64,000 nucleotides of DNA from Fibrobacterota bacterium (GTDB lineage Bacteria; Fibrobacterota; Fibrobacteria; UBA11236): assembly GCA_019509785.1 (NCBI GenBank), contig JAEKLQ010000021.1:80082-144081 (forward strand), written 5' to 3'. Below the pieces are notes generated by a model. The model did no database searches. It saw only the letters and a program-made list of their open reading frames with translations, and was not told where the DNA came from. Of the stretch, positions 1 through 12,613 are shown piece after piece. A program made the translations under genes and the position numbers. Each line of letters opens with the position of its first letter. The stretch's first letter is position 1.

Positions 1-33
1 TCGCGGGCTTAGTCGTTTGCTTTTCGCCTTGGC

Positions 34-1764
34 TCAGGTGCTTCCCGTGGGTTTGGCCATGGCGGGCTGGTTCCCGTTCTTCTTCGGGGCTTCCAGCACC
101 ATATCGGCGTAGGTCAGGCCGGCGGGGATCATGGGGAACACGTTGTCCTCCTTCTCCACTTCGGCCTCGATGATGCAGGGCCCGTCGTTGTAGGCCAGCG
201 CGGCCGCCAGGGTCTTGCCCACGTCGGCGTTGCGCTTGACGCGGAAGCCCTTCATGCCGTAGGCTTCGGCCAGTTTGACGAAGTTCGGGTTGCCTTCGAG
301 GTCCACGCCGGAAAGACGATTGTCGAAGAACAGGCTCTGCCATTGGCGGACCATGCCCAGGTACTTGTTGTTGATGATGAGGATCTTGATGGGCAGCTTG
401 TGCAGGGCCGCCGTGGCGAGCTCCGACAGGGTCATCTGGAAGCCGCCGTCGCCCACCACCGCGATCACCATGGAATTGGGTTTGGCGAATTGCGCGCCGA
501 TGGCCGCCGGCATGCCGAAGCCCATGGTCCCGGCGCCGCCCGAGCTGATCCAATGGAAACGTTGATCGGTCTTATAGAACTGCGCCGCCCACATCTGATG
601 CTGGCCCACGTCGGTGGTGACGATGGCCTTGCCCTTGGTGAGGCGATAGATCTCGTCCAGCACGAATTGGGCCTTGAGGCCGCCCTGCTTGCCGTACTTG
701 AGCGGGAACTGCTTCTTCCACTTCGCGATCTGCTTGAGCCAGGCTTCGGTGTCGCCCTTGCGGGCGAGGGGAAGCAGGTCCTCGACCACCAGACGGGCGT
801 CGCCCACGATGGAGCAGTCGGGCCGGATCATCTTGTTGATCTCGGCGGGGTCGATATCCACGTGGATCTTTACCGCGTCCGGGCAGAACGCCGAGTACTT
901 GCCGCAAATGCGATCGTCCCAACGCGAACCGATGGACATGATGAGATCGCAGTGCTGGACGGCCTTGTTGGCGTAAGCGGTGCCGTGCATGCCCAGCATG
1001 CCCACGCTCAGGTCGTGGCTTTCCGGAAAAGCGCCCTTGCCGAGCAAGGTGTTGGTCACCGGGATCTGGAGCTTTTCGGCCAATAGTTTCAGGGCGCGAT
1101 CCGCGCCGGAGATCACCGCGCCATGCCCGATGAGCAGGATGGGCCGCTTGGCCTTGGCCAAGAGGTCGGCGCATTTCGCCAGGGCGGCGGAATCGCCGGC
1201 TCCCGGGATGGAATAGCCGGGCAGATCCATCTCGACGTTGTAATTGGGCTCGAACATCGCGCTCGACACGTCCTTGGGAATGTCGATGAGCACCGGGCCA
1301 GGTCGGCCGGTCTCGGCTATATAAAAGGCTTCCTTGATGATGCGCGGGATATCGTTCACGTCGCGCACCAGATAAGAATGCTTCACGGCCGGATAGGAAA
1401 TGCCCACCACGTCCGCCTCTTGGAAGGCGTCCAGCCCGAGCATGGGCTTGATGGTCTGGCCGGTGATGACGATCATCGGGACGGAATCCATCATGGCGGT
1501 CATGATCCCGGTGATGGTATTGGTGGCGCCCGGGCCCGAGGTCACCAGCACCACGCCGGCCTTGCCGGTGGCGCGTGCCATGCCGTCGGCCATATGCGTG
1601 GCGCCCTGTTCATGGCGGGTGAGGATGAACTTGATGGGGGAATCCACCAAGGCGTCGAAAATCGGGATGGCGGCTCCGCCAGGATGCCCGAAGATGTATT
1701 CGACCCCATGCTGGTGGATGGAATGGATTAAGGCTTCGGCTCCGGTACACATCTTATTGGCCAT
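34..1764 (-). CDS. ilvB: Acetolactate synthase large (catalytic) subunit, biosynthetic type (thiamine-diphosphate enzyme)
   Basis: 576-aa ORF with hallmark ALS/TPP-enzyme blocks ([31 protein letters not shown]-terminal TPP-binding GDGGFQMT) read from the translation; family assignment by recall of ALS large-subunit sequences. Confidence 0.9.
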
Positions 1765-1765
1765 G

Positions 1766-2179
1766 TTTTGCCTCTTCTAAAGTCAGATCAGGTGTTGAGT
1801 ACGAAATTATAGGCAACATTCCCGGAACCAGCAACCCATTCCTTTGATTTTTATCAGGATAATTTCGATTTAAATCGCAAATTTGAAATAACTCCCCCAC
1901 ATTCTCTCCAAAAATTGCCAAAAATCCTCGATATAGAATCGATATCAAGCGACTTATCGTCAAATATTCAATTTTAATAGGCAAATACGAGAATACCGAG
2001 ACCTTATTGAGGGCAAAAGTAGCCAGTCAAGCAGCAAAACCTCTTTTTGAACAGGAGGAAGGACCGCATTCCGACTTAAACCCGTCTCCGGGGTGCTAAT
2101 TTTCCCGTGTCGCTTTCGCGCTCCCATCTCGTCACAACCTTACACACGCATTAATGACTCGCCGAAAGGAGGAACCCGG
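1766..2179. promoter_or_regulatory. AT-rich divergent intergenic/promoter region between ilvB (-) and the ECF sigma operon (+); contains the 12-bp palindrome CGATTTAAATCG (1866-1877), a TCGATAT-N4-TCGATATC pair (1928-1946), and an AAGGAGG Shine-Dalgarno at 2166-2172
   Basis: GC content is strikingly below the ~65% window average. Palindromes and direct repeats read directly from the sequence. No long ORF with credible composition. Confidence 0.45.
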
Positions 2180-2665
2180 CTGGAACTCCGGAGTACCGAA
2201 GATCTATACCGCCGCTATGGACCTATGGTCCTGAGGCGGTGCCGGCAACTGCTGCGCGATGAAGACGCCGCCCTGGATGCGCTCCAGGACGTCTTCTCCC
2301 GCTGGCTGGAACGTGCCGGGGAAAATCCGGAATATCCATCCAGTTTCTTCTACACCATGGCGACCCGCATTTGCATCGACCGCATCCGCAGCGCCGCCGT
2401 CCGGCACCGGAGCGACGATTCGCGGCTGGAGGAGATCGCTTCGGCGGAGGATATCGAAGGCGATTCCCGCGCGCGGCGCTTGCTGGACCGGATCTTCGGG
2501 CGCCAGCATGCCAGCACGCGGGTAATGGCGGTGATGCATTACGTCGACGGGCTCTCGTACGAGGAAGTAGGGGCCGAAGTGAAACTGACGGCGGCCGGCG
2601 TGCGGCGGCGATTGCAGCGGCTGCGCGAGCACGCGGCGAAATGGAACGGGGAGGGAAAATCATGA
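2180..2665 (+). CDS. ECF-family RNA polymerase sigma-70 factor (start codon uncertain: CTG at 2180 preceded by AAGGAGG, or ATG at 2225)
   Basis: Translation shows the sigma2 region (DLYRRYGPMVLRRCRQLLRDEDAALDALQDVFSRWLE) and sigma4 HTH region (MHYVDGLSYEEVGAEVKLTAAGVRRRLQRLRE). Its stop TGA (2663-2665) overlaps the ATG (2662-2664) of the next gene. Confidence 0.8.
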   Translation: MELRSTEDLYRRYGPMVLRRCRQLLRDEDAALDALQDVFSRWLERAGENPEYPSSFFYTMATRICIDRIRSAAVRHRSDDSRLEEIASAEDIEGDSRARRLLDRIFGRQHASTRVMAVMHYVDGLSYEEVGAEVKLTAAGVRRRLQRLREHAAKWNGEGKS

Positions 2666-3531
2666 GCCCAAGGCCCATGCCGGAACAGATGTTGGAACGC
2701 TACCGATTGGGCGAATTGCCCCCGGCGGCCATGGCGGATCTGCGCGCCCGCTGCGAGGCCGATCCGGAACTGCGGGCGCGCCTGGAAGCCCTCGATCGTT
2801 CCGATGCGGCCATCCTGGCGGCGTACCCGCCCGCGGCGATGGCGCGCGACCTGCTTTCGAGAAGGGCATCGGAAAAGGATGCGGGAAGGGAAACGGGAAC
2901 GAATGCGCGGCGATCCTCGCGGGCGGGAAGTCCCGGTCGGCGGCCGGGCTTCGGCCGTAAAGCCTTATGGGCCGCGCCCTCGGGGCTGGCATTGGCCTGC
3001 GGCCTCGTGCTGGCCGTGCGCCATCTCCCCGAACCCAGTAACACGCAAGTTACGGAAAGCCCCGCGGCCTACGCGGTCCGGCTCAAAGGGTCCGATGCCG
3101 GATTGGCCATCTTCCGTAAAGCCAAGGGAGGCGCCGAGCTCTTGCCCCCGCATTCCCTGGCGAAACCGGGCGATACCCTGCAAGTCTTCTACCATAGCCG
3201 CGGACCCGCGTTCGGGGCGATTTTCTCCGTGGACGGGGCCGGGGGGGTCACCTTGCATCTTCCCGAAGAAGGCGGAACGGCGACGGCGCTGCAAACGGGC
3301 GACCTTCTGCCTTTGCCGCATGCTTATCGACTGGACCGGGCCCCGCGCCTGGAACGGTTTTTCCTGATTACGGCCCCGCGCCCTTTCTCTGTAGACGGAT
3401 TCTTGCAACAGGCCCGGGCCGCCTTCGCGGTCCGGCATGAGGCGCTCGATTCCCTGTCGGGGCTGGAAGCGGGCTTCCGCCAATATCCTTATACCTTACG
3501 CAAGCCCGGGAAGGGCGAGGGATCGAAATGA
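2662..3531 (+). CDS. Membrane-spanning anti-sigma factor (RskA/ChrR-like N-terminal anti-sigma domain, one TM helix, ~170-aa periplasmic C-terminal domain)
   Basis: N-terminus MSPRPMPEQMLERYRLGELPP matches the L-x-x-Y-x-L-G-x-L anti-sigma signature. Hydrophobic segment ALWAAPSGLALACGLVLAV. ATGA overlap with the sigma factor upstream and with the caspase gene downstream (3528-3531). Confidence 0.7.
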   Translation: MSPRPMPEQMLERYRLGELPPAAMADLRARCEADPELRARLEALDRSDAAILAAYPPAAMARDLLSRRASEKDAGRETGTNARRSSRAGSPGRRPGFGRKALWAAPSGLALACGLVLAVRHLPEPSNTQVTESPAAYAVRLKGSDAGLAIFRKAKGGAELLPPHSLAKPGDTLQVFYHSRGPAFGAIFSVDGAGGVTLHLPEEGGTATALQTGDLLPLPHAYRLDRAPRLERFFLITAPRPFSVDGFLQQARAAFAVRHEALDSLSGLEAGFRQYPYTLRKPGKGEGSK

Positions 3532-5723
3532 AGATCTCATTCCGCTCAACCGGCTACGCATTGGCCTTGGCCATCGCTGCCTTGTCCGGGATCCCGGCTT
3601 CCGTGGCCCCGGCCTCCTTTGCTTCGAAGTCCGCCGTCTCGGCGCCCGCCGGCCCGGCGTCCGCCCCTTTGCGCCGCTTCGCCTTGGCCGTTGGCGTCAA
3701 CGACGGCGGTCCCGCTCGCGTTCGCTTACGCTATGCCGGCAGCGATGCCGCCAACTTCGCCGCCGTGATGGAGCGCTTCGGCGGAGTCGCGTCGCGCGAC
3801 ATGCGCGTCTTGCGCGAACCTGGCCGTCGCGAATTCCTGGAAGCGTTGGCCTCCATGCGCTCCGCGGTGGCGGCCGCGAACGCGGCCGGGCAACGGGCGG
3901 AATTGCTGGTCTATTATTCCGGCCATTCCGACGAAGCCGGCTTGTTGCTGGGCCGCGACCGCCTGGACTATTCCGAATTCCGCTCGCGCATCGATTCCAT
4001 TCCGGCGCGCATCCGCTTGGCGGTGGTGGATGCCTGCGCTTCGGGAGCCTTGACGCGCATCAAGGGCGGGAGCCGCTTGCCGGCCTTTTCGGTGGATCAA
4101 AGTTCCAACCTCAGCGGCTATGCCTTCCTCACTTCCAGCTCGGGCGCCGAGGCCTCGCAGGAATCGGACCGCATCCGCGCCTCCTATTTCACCCACTATC
4201 TGGTTTCGGGCCTGCGCGGCGCGGCCGATCGCAATCAGGACGGGCGGGTGACCTTAGGGGAGGCCTATGCCTTCGCTTTCCAGGAGACCTTGGCGCAGAC
4301 CGAAGGCAGCCAGGCGGGGGCGCAACACCCGAGTTACGATATGCGGCTGACGGGAACGGGCGATCTCGTGCTCACCGATTTGCGCGGGACCTCGGCGGGG
4401 TTGGTGCTGGCTCCCGCCGTACATGGCCGATTGTTCGTTCGTTCCTCGGCGGGAGATCTGGTGGCCGAATTGCACAAGCAATCCGGGGCCAAGATGGAGC
4501 TCGGCTTGGAGCCCGGGATTTACGACCTGGATTTGGACCAAGGCGATTCGCTTTTCCACGCGCTCGTGAAGTTGGATACCTTGGAACATGCCCCGGTCTC
4601 CCGTGCCGACTTGAACCTCGTGGCCCGGGAAAGCACGCGGAACCGAGGGGAGGCGGGGCCGGCCGCAGCGTCCATCGGCGCCCCCGATACCGCGCCCTCC
4701 ACCGAGCCACGCGAAAAAGCAACGGCCATTCCCGCGACCTGGATCCCGGCGCGCGCGGCGGTGGTTCCTTCGCTAGGCTACCCGGGAAGCGGCGCAGGGC
4801 CGTGGTCCCATAATCTTTCCGTCAATTTGCTTTCGGGCCGGGCGCAGGACATCAACGGCCTGCAATTTTCCTTGGGTGGGAACCGGGCCGAAGGGCGGGT
4901 GGCCGGCGTCCAATTTTCGCTAATGAATTTCGCATCGGGTCCGTCCACGGGTCTTCAGTACGGGGTCCTGGCCAATGCGCAAGCGCGCAACCATACCGGT
5001 TTCCAACTCAGCTTCGTCGCCAACAACGCCGACTCCCTCACGGGCCTGCAAGCCGGGGCCATCAACCATGCGGGCCGTCTCGAAGGCGTGCAGGCCGGAG
5101 CCATCAATGCCGCCGGGATCGGGGACGGAATCCAGCTGGGAGGCCTCAACGTGGCGGAGAGTCAGCGCGGACTCCAGGCGGGTCTCGTGAACATCGCGGA
5201 CAGCTCGCGCGGATTGCAGGCGGGCCTTTTCAATTATGCGACCCATGGGGAGGGGCTCGTCCTGGGCCTCGTCAGCGTCGTCCGGAACGGGATGCATGAT
5301 GCGGAGGCGACCTTCGATGATCGCTCCATGCTGCGGACGGCCTTTCTGCTGGGGGGACCGTACAATTACAACTACTTGTCTTTCGACATGAAGGCGCGAT
5401 ATCCACGCCACTTGTGGGGAGGGAGCGCCGGGGTGGGCGTGCATATCCCCTTGGCTTATGCCTTCGTCGATTTGGATGCGGGAGGCGGCCTGGTGTTCAA
5501 CGACGTGGATTGGGATAACCAGAGTTACACCGCCCGCTTCCGTTTGATCGGCGGTTATGCGCCCAGCCGTTGGTTCAACGTCTTCGGCGGATTCACCGCC
5601 AACCTGGAGATGTGGCCCGCATCGAGATTCCCCAATCTGAACCCCGATCGGAAGGGCGAGCGTTGGGGCGACGAAATCCGGGCGGAGAAATGGCCAGGTT
5701 TCGTGGTTGGGGTGAGGATATGA
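3528..5723 (+). CDS. Secreted caspase-family (peptidase C14, orthocaspase/metacaspase-like) protein with C-terminal tandem G-[LV]-Q-x-G-x-x-N repeat module and aromatic-rich C-terminal domain
   Basis: N-terminal signal peptide (MKISFRSTGYALALAIAALSGIPASVAPA). Caspase p20-like block with catalytic His (LLVYYSGHSDEAG) and Cys (LAVVDACASGAL). About 10 tandem repeats of a ~14-aa unit (GLQAGLVNIADSSR, GLQAGLFNYATHGE, GVQAGAINAAG...). ATGA overlaps at both ends. Confidence 0.8.
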   Translation: MKISFRSTGYALALAIAALSGIPASVAPASFASKSAVSAPAGPASAPLRRFALAVGVNDGGPARVRLRYAGSDAANFAAVMERFGGVASRDMRVLREPGRREFLEALASMRSAVAAANAAGQRAELLVYYSGHSDEAGLLLGRDRLDYSEFRSRIDSIPARIRLAVVDACASGALTRIKGGSRLPAFSVDQSSNLSGYAFLTSSSGAEASQESDRIRASYFTHYLVSGLRGAADRNQDGRVTLGEAYAFAFQETLAQTEGSQAGAQHPSYDMRLTGTGDLVLTDLRGTSAGLVLAPAVHGRLFVRSSAGDLVAELHKQSGAKMELGLEPGIYDLDLDQGDSLFHALVKLDTLEHAPVSRADLNLVARESTRNRGEAGPAAASIGAPDTAPSTEPREKATAIPATWIPARAAVVPSLGYPGSGAGPWSHNLSVNLLSGRAQDINGLQFSLGGNRAEGRVAGVQFSLMNFASGPSTGLQYGVLANAQARNHTGFQLSFVANNADSLTGLQAGAINHAGRLEGVQAGAINAAGIGDGIQLGGLNVAESQRGLQAGLVNIADSSRGLQAGLFNYATHGEGLVLGLVSVVRNGMHDAEATFDDRSMLRTAFLLGGPYNYNYLSFDMKARYPRHLWGGSAGVGVHIPLAYAFVDLDAGGGLVFNDVDWDNQSYTARFRLIGGYAPSRWFNVFGGFTANLEMWPASRFPNLNPDRKGERWGDEIRAEKWPGFVVGVRI

Positions 5724-6592
5724 GAAAGCGCGTCTTGGCGGCGGCGCTTCTGGTCCTGGGCGGGTGCATCGAGAATCCCGGCGTGGATAAGGATTTGGCC
5801 GATCGGCACAATCGCCTCAGCGCCGACTTCACGGTATCGGAAGCGGCGGATCGCGTGCGGCTTCGCCTCCAGCGCACGGCCGCGGGTACCGAACTTTATC
5901 TCGCCAACCTTACCGACCAGCCCATCGATTCCCTGGATTTCTTCGCCCAGGCCTCGGATGAAGGGCCCCTGCTTTATTCCGGCGGCATAGGCGCCGGGAA
6001 TCCGGTTTTCGACGACTCCCCGGTCGCAGAATTCAACGGAAGGGTGGTGGGCCTGCAAAGCGGGATGGAAGCGGATCTCGGTCCCTTGACCGGCGCATTC
6101 CCCCGGAATCTGGATGAGGCCGACCTGATTTTCGTTACCCTGGCGGTAGACTCGATTTCGAATCCGGTCGTAAACCGGCACGTCGGATATTACTCCGGAG
6201 TCTTCACGGCCCGGGATTCAACGGGATCGGCCATCGAGGGGACCCTGCGGGGGTTGGTTTCCGATCACGGATTCCACTTCTGGTTGCGCACGGGCAGCCA
6301 TGTGTGGGGAGCCCTCAATGGGGATATCCGCGGAGACTCGGTTTATGGGATCAAATACGGCGATGCGGTGGACTATGCCAGGCGGTACGCCGCCACCACC
6401 CTCGCCGTCGCCCTGGATGCGCGCACGGATGATTCGATTGGATTCGCAGCGGTGCTCAGCGGCTTGTGGGGTCCGGGGAATTTCCTGGACCTACGCGTAA
6501 CGCTTTCCCGGTCCGATCCCCAGCGCTGGCCCCACATAACCCTTAAAGCGAACCGCGCCACGCTTCCCAATCCACCGGCGGTTGGGCCATGA
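5720..6592 (+). CDS. Hypothetical lipoprotein (lipobox LVLGGC followed by IENPGVD), paralog of the next gene
   Basis: ATG at 5720 lies inside an ATGA overlap with the caspase gene stop (5721-5723). Signal peptide plus lipobox cysteine. Shares motifs with the next ORF (ENPG[VL]D, VRLRL[QE]R, ELYLANL/RLYLENL, DSL[DE]F, EADLGPL[TA]G, LDLR[VI]xL[SA]RS). Confidence 0.6.
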   Translation: MRKRVLAAALLVLGGCIENPGVDKDLADRHNRLSADFTVSEAADRVRLRLQRTAAGTELYLANLTDQPIDSLDFFAQASDEGPLLYSGGIGAGNPVFDDSPVAEFNGRVVGLQSGMEADLGPLTGAFPRNLDEADLIFVTLAVDSISNPVVNRHVGYYSGVFTARDSTGSAIEGTLRGLVSDHGFHFWLRTGSHVWGALNGDIRGDSVYGIKYGDAVDYARRYAATTLAVALDARTDDSIGFAAVLSGLWGPGNFLDLRVTLSRSDPQRWPHITLKANRATLPNPPAVGP

Positions 6593-7479
6593 AGGCGGCG
6601 TTAGCGGCGGTGGCCCTTTTAGGATTTTCCGCCTGCCTCGAGAATCCGGGTTTGGACTGGGGGCTGGAGAACAAGCAAGACCTGGCCCGCCGGGAATTCG
6701 ACGTGAACGGAAATAGCGTGCGCGTCCGTCTCGAGCGCAGGAATGGCGAAACCCGCCTCTATCTCGAGAACCTGGATCGAAAGGATCTGGATTCCCTGGA
6801 GTTCGCGATCCAGGTTTGCCCGGACCAGGCGATGTTCGCGATCGCCCAACCATATTATCCGGGGCCGATGCAATTGGTCTACTGCGCCGATCCCATCGCT
6901 GAACCCCATGGCACGGCCATCCGCCTGCCTGGCCGCTCCGAAGCCGACTTGGGCCCCTTGGCGGGAGATTACCCGGAAGAACTGAATCGGGTCGGCATCG
7001 CTTTCGTTCCGCTCCGCGATACGCGTAACTCGCCGCGACTCGGAAGCGATCGCTTCGGTTATTACCAAGGAACATGGTTGGAGAACCAAATTAAGGCCGC
7101 GCCCAGATCGGGCTCGCTACGCGGATTTATCCTCCGTGACGGTTATTTCTTGTTTCTGCTCCGGGAAGCCGGTGTGTATTACGGCCCCTTAAGGGGCGTC
7201 CTGGCCGGTGATTCATTGATCGATGCCTACTATCTGACCAATTGGGAATACCACCAGGCTGAGGCGTTGACGGATCCGGCCCACCCTCCGGCCCTCCTCC
7301 TTCCCGCGGCCGGGTCCCCGGATTCGCTCGGGTTCACGGGTCGTTTCATCGTCCATTTCCTTCCAGGACGTCCCGATACCCTGGACCTGCGGATTGCCCT
7401 GGCGCGTTCCGCCGGCCTCGAATGGCCCAAGCCTGTGGCCGCGATCGATTCCGATCTTCCCGCGTCGAATCCGAAGTGA
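6589..7479 (+). CDS. Hypothetical lipoprotein (lipobox LLGFSAC followed by LENPGLD), tandem paralog of the previous gene
   Basis: ATGA overlap (6589-6592) with the preceding gene. Signal peptide plus lipobox. Collinear conserved motifs with the previous ORF, ~30% identity by eye. Confidence 0.6.
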   Translation: MKAALAAVALLGFSACLENPGLDWGLENKQDLARREFDVNGNSVRVRLERRNGETRLYLENLDRKDLDSLEFAIQVCPDQAMFAIAQPYYPGPMQLVYCADPIAEPHGTAIRLPGRSEADLGPLAGDYPEELNRVGIAFVPLRDTRNSPRLGSDRFGYYQGTWLENQIKAAPRSGSLRGFILRDGYFLFLLREAGVYYGPLRGVLAGDSLIDAYYLTNWEYHQAEALTDPAHPPALLLPAAGSPDSLGFTGRFIVHFLPGRPDTLDLRIALARSAGLEWPKPVAAIDSDLPASNPK

Positions 7480-7577
7480 TGCCCCGCATCCACGGATGAT
7501 GCCCCGGATCGCCTTTCGGAGACACGCTTCCGCCTAGCTTTGGGATCCGTCGCCATAGCGCGCCGAAAGGAGACCCT

Positions 7578-8249
7578 ATGCAAACCCTTAAAGACCTATC
7601 CCCCGCCGATTGGCCCCGTGAAAAGCTGATGGAGCGGGGCCCCGGACATCTGTCGAATGCCGAACTGTTGGCCGTAGTATTGGGCCGCGGCCAGCCCGGC
7701 AAGGACGTACTCACCCTGGCTGGCGAAGTGGTGGAAACGTTATCCGGCCTGGAAGACGAGTTGACCCTGGACACCTTGCTGGAAATCAAAGGCATCGGCC
7801 TGGGCAAGGGCTGCCAGATCCTCGCCAGTATCGAGTTCTCGCGGCGTTTCCTCACGGCGCGAAAGAAGCTGAAGGTGCGCACGCCCAAGGATGCTCTGCC
7901 CTTGCTCGGGGCGTTGCGCGCGGCCGCGCAGGAGTGCGTGGTGGTGCTCACCCTGGACGGCAACAACCAGATCATCAAGTCGCATACCATCACGCGCGGG
8001 CTCGCCAACCAAAGCCAAATCCATCCGCGGGAAACCTTCTATCCGGCCATCCAGGACCGGGCCGTGAGCATCCTGGTGGCGCACAACCATCCTTCGGGAA
8101 ACCTGGAGCCTTCGGAAGCCGATTTGATCGCGACGCGGCGATTGGTGGAGGTCTCGAAGACCTTGGGGATCCCGGTGCTGGATCACCTCATCGTGGCGGA
8201 GGGCGGGTTCTTGTCGATCCGGGAGAAGTATCCGGCTTATTTCGGCTGA
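7578..8249 (+). CDS. radC: RadC-family JAB/MPN (JAMM) domain protein (UPF0758)
   Basis: JAMM motif HNHPSGNLEPSEADLIATRRL, N-terminal HhH-like LSNAELLAVVLGRG. AAAGGAG RBS upstream of the ATG at 7578. Confidence 0.85.
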   Translation: MQTLKDLSPADWPREKLMERGPGHLSNAELLAVVLGRGQPGKDVLTLAGEVVETLSGLEDELTLDTLLEIKGIGLGKGCQILASIEFSRRFLTARKKLKVRTPKDALPLLGALRAAAQECVVVLTLDGNNQIIKSHTITRGLANQSQIHPRETFYPAIQDRAVSILVAHNHPSGNLEPSEADLIATRRLVEVSKTLGIPVLDHLIVAEGGFLSIREKYPAYFG

Positions 8250-8280
8250 GCGCTCAGGGAGGTATCGTGCCGTTCGGCGA

Positions 8281-8302
8281 CGCCTCAGACCGGGCTGAGG
8301 CG
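8281..8302. terminator. Candidate bidirectional terminator hairpin between convergent radC and the tlpA-like gene (CGCCTCAG-accggg-CTGAGGCG, 8-bp perfect stem)
   Basis: Inverted repeat read directly from the sequence, located in the 55-bp gap between two convergent stop codons. No strong U-tract. Confidence 0.5.
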
Positions 8303-8304
8303 CA

Positions 8305-9198
8305 TCAGAGGTATTCCTTGATCCACTTCTCGATGTCGCGCTGTTGATGCAGCCCCACCTCCATGCGCTGGATGACGCCTTGCTTATCGATCACCGCCAA
8401 GGTCGGGAAGGCGAGGGCCTGGTATTGGTTGGTCGTGATGTGGCCGATATCGTTGAAGAGCGGATAGGAAAGCTTGGCGGTGGACTGGAAGGCCTTCAGA
8501 TCCGGAAGGCTTTCCGAACTCACGCCGATGATCTCGAGGCCTTTGCCATGGTACTTCTTGTAGACCGCATCCAGGATGGGCAGCGACATGCGGCAGGGGC
8601 CGCACCAGGTGGCCCAGAAGTCCACCAGTACCACCTTGCCCTTGTTCTGCGCCAGCGCGCCGGCGTCGCCGGAGTAGTATTTCCCGTCGAGCGCGGGCGC
8701 GGGGCCTCCCACCAGCATCTGGGTGATGACGCGCATGTCTTCCGGCTTCGGGGAGAGGGCCATCTTCTGCTTGAAGGCTTTGCCATCGCGGCCCACGCGC
8801 AGTTCCACCATTTCGCCTACGCCTTTGGAATGGATGGTATCCAATAGGGTCTTGCGGCCATGCAGGTCGGTCGCGTTGATGGAGAGGATGAAGTCCCCTT
8901 CCTTGAGGCCGGCTTGATCGGCGGAGGTACCGCGGAAAACCTGCTGGACCTTGACCACGCCTTCGGCCGTGGTAGGCGCGTAGGCGGCGGGAATCTCGTT
9001 TTGGGGGACATCGGCGATGGCCACGCCGAGCCAGGCGGATGGCTTTTTTGCCGCCTGGGTCGGCGATGCAGCGGGCGCGTCGGGGACGACCGTTGCCCCG
9101 ACCGAGGCCGGAGCCGAAGCGGGATCGGTCGATTTATGGGCGGAACCCGCCGCGGCAATGCATCCGAGGAAGGCGATGAAGAGGCCCAAACGCGACAT
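8305..9198 (-). CDS. TlpA-like thiol:disulfide oxidoreductase lipoprotein with PDZ domain (thioredoxin fold, WCGPC active site)
   Basis: Signal peptide/lipobox (LFIAFLGC), PDZ-like block ([16 protein letters not shown]), thioredoxin motif [19 protein letters not shown]. Confidence 0.8.
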
Positions 9199-9249
9199 TG
9201 CGGCTCCTTTCCCAAGCAGGTTTGCAATCTACGAATTTAACTTTGGTCC

Positions 9250-9669
9250 ATGACAATCAGCCATTGGATTACGGTTTGCGTTTGCGCGCTTCCGCTTGGC
9301 GGGTGCACGGTGATCGGCGGGGTCATAGGCGCCCACCGGGATGCGGAAATCATCGGCACTCGCGAGGTGGCGCCGACCAAGGCCGGCGATCTTTCTTCCA
9401 AAACCGTCATCTACGCAACCCTGGCGGGGAGGGAGCCTGCGAAAGGCCGCTTCCGCGGCGTGTCGGATTCCGCCGGCATCCGCCTGCTTCGGATAGAGAC
9501 GGCGGATGGCCGGGAAAGCCTACCGCTGGACAGCGTTTCCGATCTCGTCGCCGAAGTCCCTAACCGAGGGCATCTGCTGGCGGGGCTCATCATCGGTGCC
9601 GCCATCGACGCCACCTTGGCGGGCGCGGTCTTGGCCATCGTATTCCTGCTGCCCCCGCCGGTCTATTAA
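9250..9669 (+). CDS. Small hypothetical lipoprotein with C-terminal hydrophobic helix
   Basis: ORF with lipobox ALPLGGC and C-terminal TM-like segment. No recognisable domain. Overlaps a longer frame of the next gene, so low confidence. Confidence 0.35.
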   Translation: MTISHWITVCVCALPLGGCTVIGGVIGAHRDAEIIGTREVAPTKAGDLSSKTVIYATLAGREPAKGRFRGVSDSAGIRLLRIETADGRESLPLDSVSDLVAEVPNRGHLLAGLIIGAAIDATLAGAVLAIVFLLPPPVY

Positions 9670-9694
9670 AACCCGAATAACCGGGAGAGGAATA

Positions 9695-10237
9695 ATGGCC
9701 GCTTATATCGTTTTGATCCGCGGCATCAACGTGGGAGGGAAGTCCATGCCCATGGCGGCCTTGCGGGACATGCTCGCCGGGCTCGGCCATGGGAACGCGA
9801 AGACCTACATCCAGTCCGGGAACGCCGTCTTCACCGCGCCCGGGAAGGACGGGATGAAAATCGCGCGGGCCATCGAATCCGCCATCGCCGGGAAATTCGG
9901 GTACGAGGCCGCGGTCATCGTGCGCAGCCTCGAGGAATGGCGCGCTTTGCTGAAGGCCAACCCTTATGCCAAGGCCAAGCTGAAGGATGGGGAACGGCTC
10001 TTCATCACCTTCCTGGAGGAGGCCCCCGCCAAGGCGATGGCCGCCAAGCTGGAAGCCATCCAGGATCCGAAAGATGAGGTGAAGGTCCGCGGCCGCGAAG
10101 CCTTCTTGCTGGTGCGCGGCAGCTACGGGGAATCGAACCTGTCCAACGCCTTCGTGGAGAAGGTGCTGGGCGTGCGCGCTACCACCCGCAATCTGCCCAC
10201 CACCCTTAAGCTGCTGGAGATGGCCGAGTCGTTATAG
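9695..10237 (+). CDS. DUF1697-family protein
   Basis: MAAYIVLIRGINVGGKSMPMAALRDMLAGLG...TYIQSGNAVF N-terminus is characteristic of DUF1697 proteins (recall). GGAGAGG RBS upstream of the ATG at 9695. Confidence 0.7.
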   Translation: MAAYIVLIRGINVGGKSMPMAALRDMLAGLGHGNAKTYIQSGNAVFTAPGKDGMKIARAIESAIAGKFGYEAAVIVRSLEEWRALLKANPYAKAKLKDGERLFITFLEEAPAKAMAAKLEAIQDPKDEVKVRGREAFLLVRGSYGESNLSNAFVEKVLGVRATTRNLPTTLKLLEMAESL

Positions 10238-10314
10238 CCCCGGCCCAACCTTAGGCCCGATCCTAGATGCGCCCCGCCCGGCCCCGCCTCGGGACCGGCG
10301 CCGGACGCGGCCCA

Positions 10315-11337
<1,023 letters not shown>

Positions 11338-11374
11338 GGACAGTCTCCCGAGCGAGGATTCCGGCGGAAAAGTA

Positions 11375-12613
11375 TTAATTATTCACTCGATCGGTTCCAT
11401 CCTTCAATAGGAACCATGCATAGACGGCTGCGGCCAAGGCGATGGCTCCCGATACCTGGTATACCGCGCGCAACGAAAACGCATGCCATAAGGCGCCGGC
11501 GGCGAATCCCGCCAACGCGCCGGGAAGCGTCCCGTAAAAGACCGGCGCGAGCACTTGCAGGGAAGGACGATCCTGCGGCTGATGGGTGCGATCAAGGTAG
11601 ATCCCGAAGCCGGTGAGCGCTCCCGAGAAGAAGCATCCGTGCATGACGAGGGCCAGGCAATATTGCCAGGCGGAATGGGCCAAGGCCAACCCTCCCAGCT
11701 TGAGCAAGGTACCCGCGATCCCGAAGGCCAGCACGGCGCGCAAGCCCCGGCGGCGCAGCATCCAGGCGCAGAGAAGCATCCAGGGGATTTCGCATGCGGT
11801 GGAAACCACCCAGGCCAGGCTGATGACCCGTTGCCCTTGGTGCCAGCGATCGACCAGGTAGTTGGCTTGCATGGAGGTGGCCATGGTATTGGCGAAGTTC
11901 ATGACGCACAACATGATGAGAAGCCGGGCCGTGCGCGGCTCCGCCAGCAGGCGCAAGGAATGGGCGAAGGAGGGACGCGGTTGGAATGGGCCGGCGTGGA
12001 CGGGCGAAGGCGTTCGCCGGAAATCCCATGCGGCCACGAGCAGGGTGGCGCCTAAGGCGGCGGCGAAGCCGGCGTAAAGGAGCGGGAGATCGGAAAGGCG
12101 CGGGAAGCGCATGCTGATGAGGCACCCCGCCAGGAAGCCCGCTGTGCCCAGGCTGCGCAAGCGGAAGAAGGCGTCATGGCCGCGGGACCGCATGGATTCG
12201 AAGGCGCAGGCGGCGTTGAGCGGGAAAACCCCGGCGGAGCAGAAGGAGAAGAAGGCGAACCCGATCAGGAGGGACGGGAATCCGTGCAGGCGCGGAAGCA
12301 CCGCCAGGGATGCGCCGGCGCAAGCCAGGACCAGGAGGAAGGGCAGGCGGGGGCCATGGAAGCGCCGGATGCTGGCGACCTGGAAGAACGGCGAGACGAG
12401 GGCGGCGAGTTGGCCGGCCATGAGCAGGAGCCCGATCCCGAAACGGGAGACCCCGCGGTTCTCGAACAGGTAGGCATGGAATTGGCCGGCGGATATGCCG
12501 ACGAAGGTGAGGAACATGGTGAGGCCAGGGCCGGCCAGGGAGGCCGGCGACGCGGCCGTTTCGGGGACATGGGGTCGCTTCGACGCGTCCGCTCTTCCAT
12601 TTCCCGGTTCCAT
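11375..12613 (-). CDS. Major facilitator superfamily (MFS) transporter, 12-TM type
   Basis: 412-aa highly hydrophobic ORF with periodic TM segments and MFS-like loop motifs. Substrate unknown. Confidence 0.75.
   Translation of the reverse strand: MEPGNGRADASKRPHVPETAASPASLAGPGLTMFLTFVGISAGQFHAYLFENRGVSRFGIGLLLMAGQLAALVSPFFQVASIRRFHGPRLPFLLVLACAGASLAVLPRLHGFPSLLIGFAFFSFCSAGVFPLNAACAFESMRSRGHDAFFRLRSLGTAGFLAGCLISMRFPRLSDLPLLYAGFAAALGATLLVAAWDFRRTPSPVHAGPFQPRPSFAHSLRLLAEPRTARLLIMLCVMNFANTMATSMQANYLVDRWHQGQRVISLAWVVSTACEIPWMLLCAWMLRRRGLRAVLAFGIAGTLLKLGGLALAHSAWQYCLALVMHGCFFSGALTGFGIYLDRTHQPQDRPSLQVLAPVFYGTLPGALAGFAAGALWHAFSLRAVYQVSGAIALAAAVYAWFLLKDGTDRVNN

Follow-up and report, generated by a model that had tools for sequence, protein, structure and literature searches.

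The window analyzed here, a 64,000-nucleotide stretch of contig JAEKLQ010000021.1 from a Fibrobacterota metagenome-assembled genome, carries at positions 2180 to 7479 a five-gene operon encoding a sigma factor of the extracytoplasmic function (ECF) class, a single-pass anti-sigma factor, a secreted metacaspase-like protease, and two lipoproteins. The conserved unit within this operon is its first three genes; the lipoprotein genes are a local extension. For the three-gene core we favor a trans-envelope signaling model that has the anti-sigma factor as the substrate of the protease, a reading to which we give slightly less than an even chance.

In this model, the inner membrane would retain the ECF sigma factor through a single-pass anti-sigma factor that exposes a DUF4384-like domain in the periplasm, and the protease would be tethered via a β-solenoid stalk to an eight-stranded outer-membrane-type barrel, with the protease domain facing the periplasm. 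Four steps would follow: i) a cue from the envelope switches the protease on or shifts its position; ii) the protease makes a site-1 cut in the juxtamembrane periplasmic segment of the anti-sigma factor, the candidate site being an RxK-G motif about 20 residues past the transmembrane helix; iii) intramembrane and cytoplasmic proteases then free the sigma factor; and iv) the sigma factor initiates transcription of its own operon at a GGTGACA-N15-CGGTGTT-type promoter and, in other lineages, also of nearby outer-membrane and TonB-system genes. The elements of the operon are as follows.

2107–2133, plus strand: putative ECF-type promoter, with a −35-like element GTGTC(GCTTT) at 2107–2116 and a −10-like element (CT)CGTC at 2128–2133
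2164–2173, plus strand: Shine-Dalgarno sequence of the sigma factor gene, AAAGGAGGAA, read directly
2180–2665, plus strand: ECF (group IV) sigma factor, about 161 residues if the start is CTG 2180; alternative starts GTG 2093 and ATG 2225
2662–3531, plus strand: single-pass anti-sigma factor, 289 residues, comprising a short N-terminus (anti-sigma-like, non-zinc), a single transmembrane helix, and a DUF4384-like periplasmic domain
2968–3027, plus strand: transmembrane helix of the anti-sigma factor, residues ~103–122
3079–3090, plus strand: RxKG motif (R140-L-K142-G143) at the beginning of the periplasmic domain, hypothetical cleavage site
Anti-sigma factor residues ~142–289, plus strand: periplasmic DUF4384-like domain
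3528–5723, plus strand: secreted metacaspase-like C14 protease, 731 residues, with signal peptide, caspase domain, β-sandwich, β-solenoid, and barrel
Protease residues ~1–32, plus strand: signal peptide
3672–4340, plus strand: caspase domain, residues 49–271
3924–3926, plus strand: predicted catalytic His133 (YYSGHS), aligned with metacaspase YSGHG
4035–4037, plus strand: predicted catalytic Cys170 (VVDACASG), with S1-pocket Asp168 two residues earlier, aligned with metacaspase DSCHSG
Protease residues 290–365, plus strand: small β-sandwich between protease domain and stalk
Protease residues ~405–588, plus strand: β-solenoid of LA_2272 repeats (1e-14)
Protease residues ~589–731, plus strand: predicted C-terminal eight-stranded outer-membrane-type barrel
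5720–6592, plus strand: lipoprotein 1, 290 residues, with lipobox LVLGG-C16 followed by ENPG
6589–7479, plus strand: lipoprotein 2, 296 residues, with lipobox LGFSA-C followed by ENPG; paralogue of lipoprotein 1

Conservation was queried with the window's own proteins in the best 80 loci from at least 574 species-level genomes. The protease family, with more than 3,300 matches in the protein collection, is present in at least that number of genomes, which are distributed over the Fibrobacterota, Myxococcota, Spirochaetota, Latescibacterota, Bdellovibrionota, and Bradymonadales. The sigma, anti-sigma, and caspase genes are colinear in 56 of the 80 loci, and in 16 others the anti-sigma gene, or its ectodomain alone, immediately precedes the caspase gene; an anti-sigma homologue thus lies directly upstream of the caspase gene in 72/80. 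Neither partner was detected in eight loci, two of which lie at contig ends and one of which (L075) carries sigma and anti-sigma genes divergently on the other strand. Lipoprotein genes are far less constant. They are absent from L007, reduced to a 106-residue remnant (10097–10417) in L002, an 85%-identical and fully syntenic relative, single in L087 (464–1372) and L088 (8001–8816), and double in L005 (10043–11800) and the window (5720–7479). The rigid five-cistron unit described in the initial annotation of this DNA therefore contracts to a core of three genes.

The operon organization that the same annotation proposed is borne out. Four ATGA stop/start overlaps, present where it had placed them (2662–2665, 3528–3531, 5720–5723, and 6589–6592; read directly), join the five plus-strand open reading frames (ORFs), and the block terminates with TGA at 7477–7479. 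A four-nucleotide overlap is the commonest operon junction, and several in succession are unremarkable alone; at the core junctions, such overlaps are a conserved property of the family, with ATGA or GTGA found between anti-sigma and caspase genes in 51 of 72 related loci and between sigma and anti-sigma genes in 38 of 56. Ten loci of the Myxococcaceae/Archangiaceae (L009, L012, L013, L015, L025, L028, L035, L046, L049, and L050) have no adjacent sigma gene and keep the anti-sigma gene, the caspase gene, and a promoter motif. These sigma-less loci carry a full-length anti-sigma factor, and in Archangium minus the upstream gene lies on the other strand. Their cognate sigma factor must be encoded elsewhere or be common to paralogous modules; Myxococcus xanthus has been reported to possess four sigma/metacaspase operons (PMC3501461).

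The protease matches Peptidase_C14 at 30.4 bits (cut-off 21.4) and displays the caspase-hemoglobinase fold with a p20-type domain that defines family C14. A second model, the NCBIfam 'caspase, EACC1-associated type', was under its threshold (55 versus 140 bits) and was taken as caspase-domain similarity only. His133 and Cys170 are invariant in a 20-sequence alignment, and both the His motif and the Cys motif are present in 80/80 protease homologues, in agreement with the secreted C14 protease with an intact His/Cys dyad that had been annotated initially. When the family profile is aligned to solved metacaspases, RYAxSD73A falls on LRGCxNDA, YSGH133S on YSGHG, and D168-A-C170-ASG on DSCHSG. By this alignment, Asp73 and Asp168 are the counterparts of D95 and D211 of TbMC2, the two S1 aspartates that bind basic P1 residues (PMC6426788). 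The protease is thus classed by its sequence as a metacaspase/orthocaspase type with an acidic S1 pocket and predicted Arg/Lys specificity, not as an Asp-specific caspase, and its intact dyad predicts catalytic competence. An AlphaFold2 (AF2) model and fold matches divide the protein into three modules that include a predicted outer-membrane-type barrel, for which the eight-stranded antiparallel OmpA-N/OmpX/OmpW/PagL class served as reference; the simplest reading is that the protease is outer-membrane-anchored, with its protease domain hanging into the periplasm.

This geometry would also suit a role other than cleavage, in which the protease, or its non-catalytic parts, serves as a co-anti-sigma factor that, by binding across the periplasm, shields the DUF4384 ectodomain from another site-1 protease until an outer-membrane disturbance breaks the contact and triggers signaling. 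The anchor and stalk would span the envelope as such a role demands, the coupled junction with the anti-sigma gene suggests matched protein amounts, and the well-established sigma-E pathway offers an analogy in RseB, which protects RseA from the site-1 protease. Retention of the His, Cys, and S1 motifs in all 80 homologues argues instead that catalysis is under selection, and we regard a purely protective role as improbable.

The gene of the candidate substrate, the anti-sigma factor (2662–3531), overlaps the stop codon of the sigma factor gene, and its homologues follow the sigma gene in the colinear loci enumerated above, consistent with the ECF sigma/single-pass anti-sigma pair proposed at the outset. 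NCBIfam anti-sigma models match at 1.8e-8 and 4.6e-6, both under cut-off (NF052375, 34.7 bits versus 100; PRK13920, 26.4 bits). Because His and Cys residues are not conserved in the N-terminus across a 47-sequence alignment, the protein is, as judged from that alignment, not of the HxxxCxxC zinc-binding subtype. Profile searches returned no TPR or CHAT match in the 289-residue anti-sigma factor and no FecR or TonB-dependent receptor match among the five operon proteins, and no solved structure matching the anti-sigma family by sequence was found. DUF4384 matches 17 of the 47 family members at E values up to 0.01, the best being 4.8e-6.

Four lines of evidence suggest that the protease acts on the anti-sigma ectodomain: i) their adjacency is conserved and usually translationally coupled; ii) DUF4384 is independently associated with caspase domains, being fused to p20 caspase domains within single proteins (PMC6426788) and serving as C-terminal domain in some Csx30 proteins, substrates of the caspase-like protease Csx29 (bioRxiv 10.1101/2022.08.17.504292); iii) ORFs that encode the ectodomain alone occur beside the caspase gene; and iv) a nearly invariant RxKG motif fits a protease specific for basic residues and stands at a typical site-1 position. 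The ectodomain-only DUF4384-like ORFs are found in L011 (5288–5968), L068 (5393–5944), L009 (5321–5950), and L031 (5417–5845). They have no anti-sigma N-terminus and are either lipoprotein-like, as in L011, or equipped only with a membrane or signal helix, as in L068, where a single N-terminal hydrophobic segment is present. Both L011 and L068 also possess a complete sigma/anti-sigma pair, divergently oriented, with the separate ectodomain ORF adjoining the caspase gene. The DUF4384-like domain hence travels with the caspase gene even when detached from the anti-sigma factor, which points to a direct functional link between domain and caspase. As for the motif, Lys142 and Gly143 are invariant in the 47-sequence alignment, and (T/V)-R-x-K-G is nearly invariant about 20 residues past the transmembrane helix. 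An RxKG string occurs in 59 of 72 caspase-adjacent anti-sigma-like ORFs, including versions with no cytoplasmic domain, as counted with an unanchored pattern that accepts any position.

A sharper form of the proposal is that the module embodies a new mode of ECF activation, in which the site-1 cut, placed after the invariant RxK of the DUF4384 ectodomain, would be the dedicated task of a metacaspase anchored in the outer membrane. The module would then be a split, trans-envelope counterpart of Craspase/Csx30 and of DdvA, an anti-sigma factor with a fused periplasmic caspase-like CHAT domain that has been proposed to start its own regulated proteolysis (PMC11506125). We hold this form more loosely than the general one and place it well below an even chance.

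The sigma factor itself is identified by Sigma70_r2 (3.9e-12, 46.2 bits, cut-off 24) and TIGR02937 (3.8e-19, 68.9 bits, cut-off 42.9), with Sigma70_r4_2 slightly under its cut-off (25.3 versus 25.7 bits); its closest solved relatives are SigE-type ECF sigma factors, and the initial assignment to the ECF class is upheld. The main text of the ECF reclassification paper (Casas-Pastor et al. 2021, PMC7826278) makes no mention of caspase, C14, or CHAT. The ORF listing starts the gene at GTG 2093; in relatives, automatic annotation places the start at an internal ATG that corresponds to 2225, which cuts away the beginning of sigma region 2. Position 2180 is a CTG codon six nucleotides downstream of the strong Shine-Dalgarno sequence; this sequence together with CTG-GAA is also found in L002 and L008, both of which have no ATG, GTG, or TTG before the region-2 helix. 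Given this conservation, and given that the putative promoter falls within the GTG-2093 ORF, the gene probably starts at CTG 2180.

A family promoter precedes the sigma gene. In the regions preceding the sigma gene, 28 of 59 loci contained the best 5-mer/4-mer pair, compared with at most 10 in shuffles, and the looser form GGT(G/A)ACA-N15-(C/T)GGTGTT was present in 41/59, with fixed spacing and 23 to 89 nucleotides before the region-2 codon. The copy in the window, GTGTCGCTTT-N12-TCGTC, is a degenerate Fibrobacterota version of GGTGACA-N15-CGGTGTT, and a homologous promoter block occupies the matching position in L002, L005, L007, L008, and L088. The clade pattern GTRNCRMTTT-N12-YCGTY has one match in the window, at the operon's own site, where 0.01 would be expected. 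A pan-phylum position weight matrix (PWM) revealed no credible second site in the 64-kb window.

When the matrix was run over all 80 loci (1.9 Mb, threshold 17 bits), the training sites were recovered as expected, and matches outside the training set fell into three groups. The motif stands directly upstream of the anti-sigma gene in ten Myxococcaceae/Archangiaceae loci with no adjacent sigma gene, and in L075 and L078 it immediately precedes the caspase gene. In four loci from other phyla a copy follows shortly after the caspase gene (L041, 8107; L064, 8092; L056, 8134; L068, 8020). The downstream copies in L041 and L064 precede a small outer-membrane protein of about 200 residues ending in ...AGVSF; that in L056 precedes an ExbB/ExbD/TonB/TonB-dependent receptor cluster; and that in L068 precedes a 420-residue paralogue, an LA_2272-repeat plus barrel protein with no caspase domain. 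From these motif positions across loci, the sigma factor seems to drive its own expression and that of envelope genes. Autoregulation had been anticipated in the initial annotation, and the 41 loci with an upstream promoter, together with the degenerate homologous copy in the window, lend it support.

The same regulon raises the strongest alternative to cleavage of the anti-sigma factor, namely that sigma activity produces the protease and is not triggered by it. The DUF4384 domain would then sense another envelope cue, and the induced, outer-membrane-anchored protease, with the lipoproteins in the present case, would degrade or process envelope proteins during stress or remodeling. Lying farther along the same autoregulated operon, the protease gene would be induced by the sigma factor; the motif directly before the caspase gene in L075 and L078 fits this reading, as do the copies before outer-membrane and TonB genes, which are consistent with an envelope regulon. 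Left unexplained would be why DUF4384 accompanies the caspase, both as ectodomain-only ORFs and in DUF4384/caspase fusions elsewhere, and why the anti-sigma and caspase genes are so frequently coupled in translation, a coupling that suggests matched protein amounts. On balance we find the output role doubtful, and the least doubtful of the alternatives.

Several observations weigh against cleavage of the anti-sigma factor by the protease, or against individual parts of that model. The conserved adjacency of the two genes fits equally well with the protease being a sigma output, and the link between protease and anti-sigma factor is itself drawn from sequence and genomic context. DUF4384 (PF14326) matches the window's anti-sigma factor at an E value of 0.0054 and 17.2 bits, under the Pfam cut-off of 27, and the RxKG motif may be structural only, as part of the first strand of the domain. 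In the AF2 model the caspase domain is partly of low confidence, with predicted local distance difference test (pLDDT) values below 50 at residues 171–218, 228–244, and 262–288; the barrel topology, and with it the membrane side on which the protease domain would lie, derives from fold matches, and the protein ends in ...GVRI, devoid of the usual aromatic residue of outer-membrane protein signals. Finally, the promoter site in the window scores 5.5 bits with the pan-phylum PWM, within the range of shuffles (up to 16), and its putative assignment is founded on positional conservation and the clade pattern, not on the PWM score.

The lipoproteins are a clade-restricted accessory, added 3′ of the protease gene in a Fibrobacterota clade. 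Lipoproteins 1 and 2 share 32% identity (E 4e-34), and the lipobox Cys (C16) and ENPG are invariant in 8/8 aligned family members, which agrees with the paralogous ENPG lipoproteins of the initial annotation; signal peptide and lipobox mark both as bacterial lipoproteins with predicted lipidation. Lipoprotein 1 has no Pfam or NCBIfam match, and the fold search returned generic eight-stranded barrels only, on which no specific function is based; the TbpB/NHBA/fHbp-like surface lipoproteins (handle domain plus eight-stranded barrel lobe, Slam export) were among the classes considered. The family is tiny (seven proteins in a set of 5.8 billion clusters, 59 representatives in one of 1.84 billion) and was encountered only in Fibrobacterota in the searches made. 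Wherever the upstream gene was identified (the window, L001, L005, L008, L087, L088, and L090), the lipoprotein gene lies directly 3′ of the caspase gene; in L089 the ORF upstream did not match. The single L087 lipoprotein, encoded after the caspase gene, is an orthologue of lipoprotein 2 (E 5e-101). The L005 twins are 45% identical to one another and about 23% identical to the window pair. These identities and the changing copy numbers suggest repeated duplication and loss, within a locus (ilvBN ... radC) whose gene order close relatives otherwise share. Most likely the lipoproteins are accessory to the protease, whether as its sensor, as its inhibitor, or as its substrate.

The operon is flanked by housekeeping-like genes (ilvBN, radC, thioredoxin) that are syntenic in relatives. 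The acetolactate synthase large subunit gene ilvB (34–1764, minus strand) lies upstream on the other strand; radC (7578–8249, plus strand) begins 98 nucleotides past the operon, with no recognizable terminator between; and a PDZ-thioredoxin fusion with a signal peptide (8305–9198, minus strand) flanks the operon on the radC side. This gene order is retained in L002 and L088, and radC with the PDZ-thioredoxin gene also in L087. A scan of positions 1700–7800 for sigma-70 promoters and intrinsic terminators gave no excess over shuffles and revealed neither an internal promoter nor a terminator past 7479; an Rfam search of window positions 1–12000 gave no match. The terminator scan did report an opposite-strand hairpin, CATGGGCCTTGGGCTCATG (2679–2661, minus strand), exactly over the sigma/anti-sigma ATGA junction, and the palindrome could fold on the mRNA strand around the coupled stop/start. 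Farther along, at 10315–11337 on the minus strand, a 340-residue protein carries many Asp-rich repeats (DKDGFQDxDGCPDPDND), thrombospondin type 3-like and calcium-binding, and an OmpA-like C-terminus; it is kept in syntenic relatives, with an OmpA match in L002, L087, and L088. An NCBI protein with 100% identity exists for the window.

This genomic context bears on whether the module is an anti-phage or programmed-cell-death device in which the caspase-like protease is a killing effector freed under sigma control, by comparison with Craspase and the DdvS/DdvA island. Caspase-like proteases are indeed tied to sigma/anti-sigma pairs in defense contexts (PMC11506125; bioRxiv 10.1101/2022.08.17.504292), and the Myxococcus operons were interpreted in terms of cell death in 2012 (PMC3501461). 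PADLOC models match none of the five operon proteins, for the Cas7-11/Csx module as for others; the neighbors ilvBN, radC, and thioredoxin are syntenic housekeeping genes and not a variable defense island, with no cas genes among them; and an exported protease cannot reach cytoplasmic targets. We consider a killing role highly improbable, and the dormancy or cell-death-like circuit suggested initially finds no support in the PADLOC results or in the syntenic surroundings.

Operons that unite a sigma-70-family gene with a metacaspase gene were reported in 2012 (Asplund-Samuelsson et al., PMC3501461); they involve four of the five metacaspases of M. xanthus and occur also in Anaeromyxobacter, Haliangium, Sorangium, Ralstonia, and Fibrobacter, lineages also recovered here. 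The novelty implied when the window's operon was first annotated thus does not stand. In the reported operons and in the window alike, the sigma and metacaspase genes share one operon, and in the window they are linked by the overlaps of the anti-sigma gene. The available text of PMC3501461 notes co-occurrence only; the anti-sigma factor, the DUF4384 ectodomain, the outer-membrane anchor, the promoter, and a mechanism were not found in it, nor were twin lipoproteins. Our search of the accessible literature likewise yielded no description of the anti-sigma factor, its ectodomain, the anchor, or the promoter and no experiment on the module, and the statement in the initial annotation that the combination matches no named characterized system holds. 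The cassette is therefore of a kind known since 2012 and uncharacterized, and the window is a further member, ordinary within its family. The window itself is of modest value, adding another copy of the cassette and a lipoprotein extension particular to its clade.

The interest lies in the family. To our knowledge, few of the abundant bacterial metacaspases and orthocaspases have a known physiological substrate, and most ECF sigma groups have no known activating step. Found in at least 574 species of several phyla, the cassette offers a testable set: one protease, one candidate substrate with a candidate cleavage motif, and one reporter promoter. Should the sharper form of the proposal hold, bacterial metacaspases would gain a defined physiological substrate, DUF4384 would become a caspase-docking or substrate domain, and the Fibrobacterota lipoproteins would be lineage-specific modulators of the protease. 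If the protease does cleave the anti-sigma factor, DdvA, Craspase/Csx30, and the present module would share a principle, that of caspase-family proteases controlling ECF sigma factors.

Among characterized systems, the DdvS/DdvA pair of M. xanthus (PMC11506125) resembles the module: a single-pass anti-sigma factor restrains an ECF sigma factor, and regulated proteolysis is proposed to begin with a periplasmic His-Cys module of the caspase superfamily. In DdvA, a TPR-CHAT module is fused to the anti-sigma factor, and the pair controls a defense island of cyclic oligonucleotide-based antiphage signaling (CBASS) and CRISPR systems; the window has a separate C14 metacaspase-like protease with an outer-membrane-type anchor, a DUF4384-like ectodomain, and no defense context. 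Type III-E Craspase (Csx29, Csx30, Csx31, RpoE) is similar in its cleavage, by a caspase-like protease, of an anti-sigma-like protein that binds an ECF-type sigma factor, and differs in being cytoplasmic, RNA-guided, and CRISPR-linked, with a TPR-CHAT protein as the protease. The module follows the three-part logic of FecA/FecR/FecI, which links an outer-membrane protein, an anti-sigma factor that sits in the inner membrane and bears a periplasmic domain, and an ECF sigma factor, and the L056 promoter precedes an ExbB/ExbD/TonB/receptor cluster; the window's outer-membrane partner is a small protease-bearing barrel and not a TonB-dependent transducer, and no FecR domain was found. Membership in the DdvA, Craspase, and FecIR families was rejected, the defining features (TPR-CHAT fusion; cas genes; FecR plus TonB transducer) being absent at the operon. 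RseA/DegS/RseP/sigma-E provides the parallel of a periplasmic site-1 cut, here proposed, in a single-pass anti-sigma factor, tens of residues from the membrane, that starts to free an ECF sigma factor subject to autoregulation. The site-1 protease there, DegS, is a serine protease of the inner membrane that the C-termini of outer-membrane proteins activate; the candidate in the window is an outer-membrane-tethered cysteine protease whose cleavage of the anti-sigma factor we infer. By analogy, the module would work most like a split DdvA, or like an RseA/DegS pathway operated by a cysteine protease.

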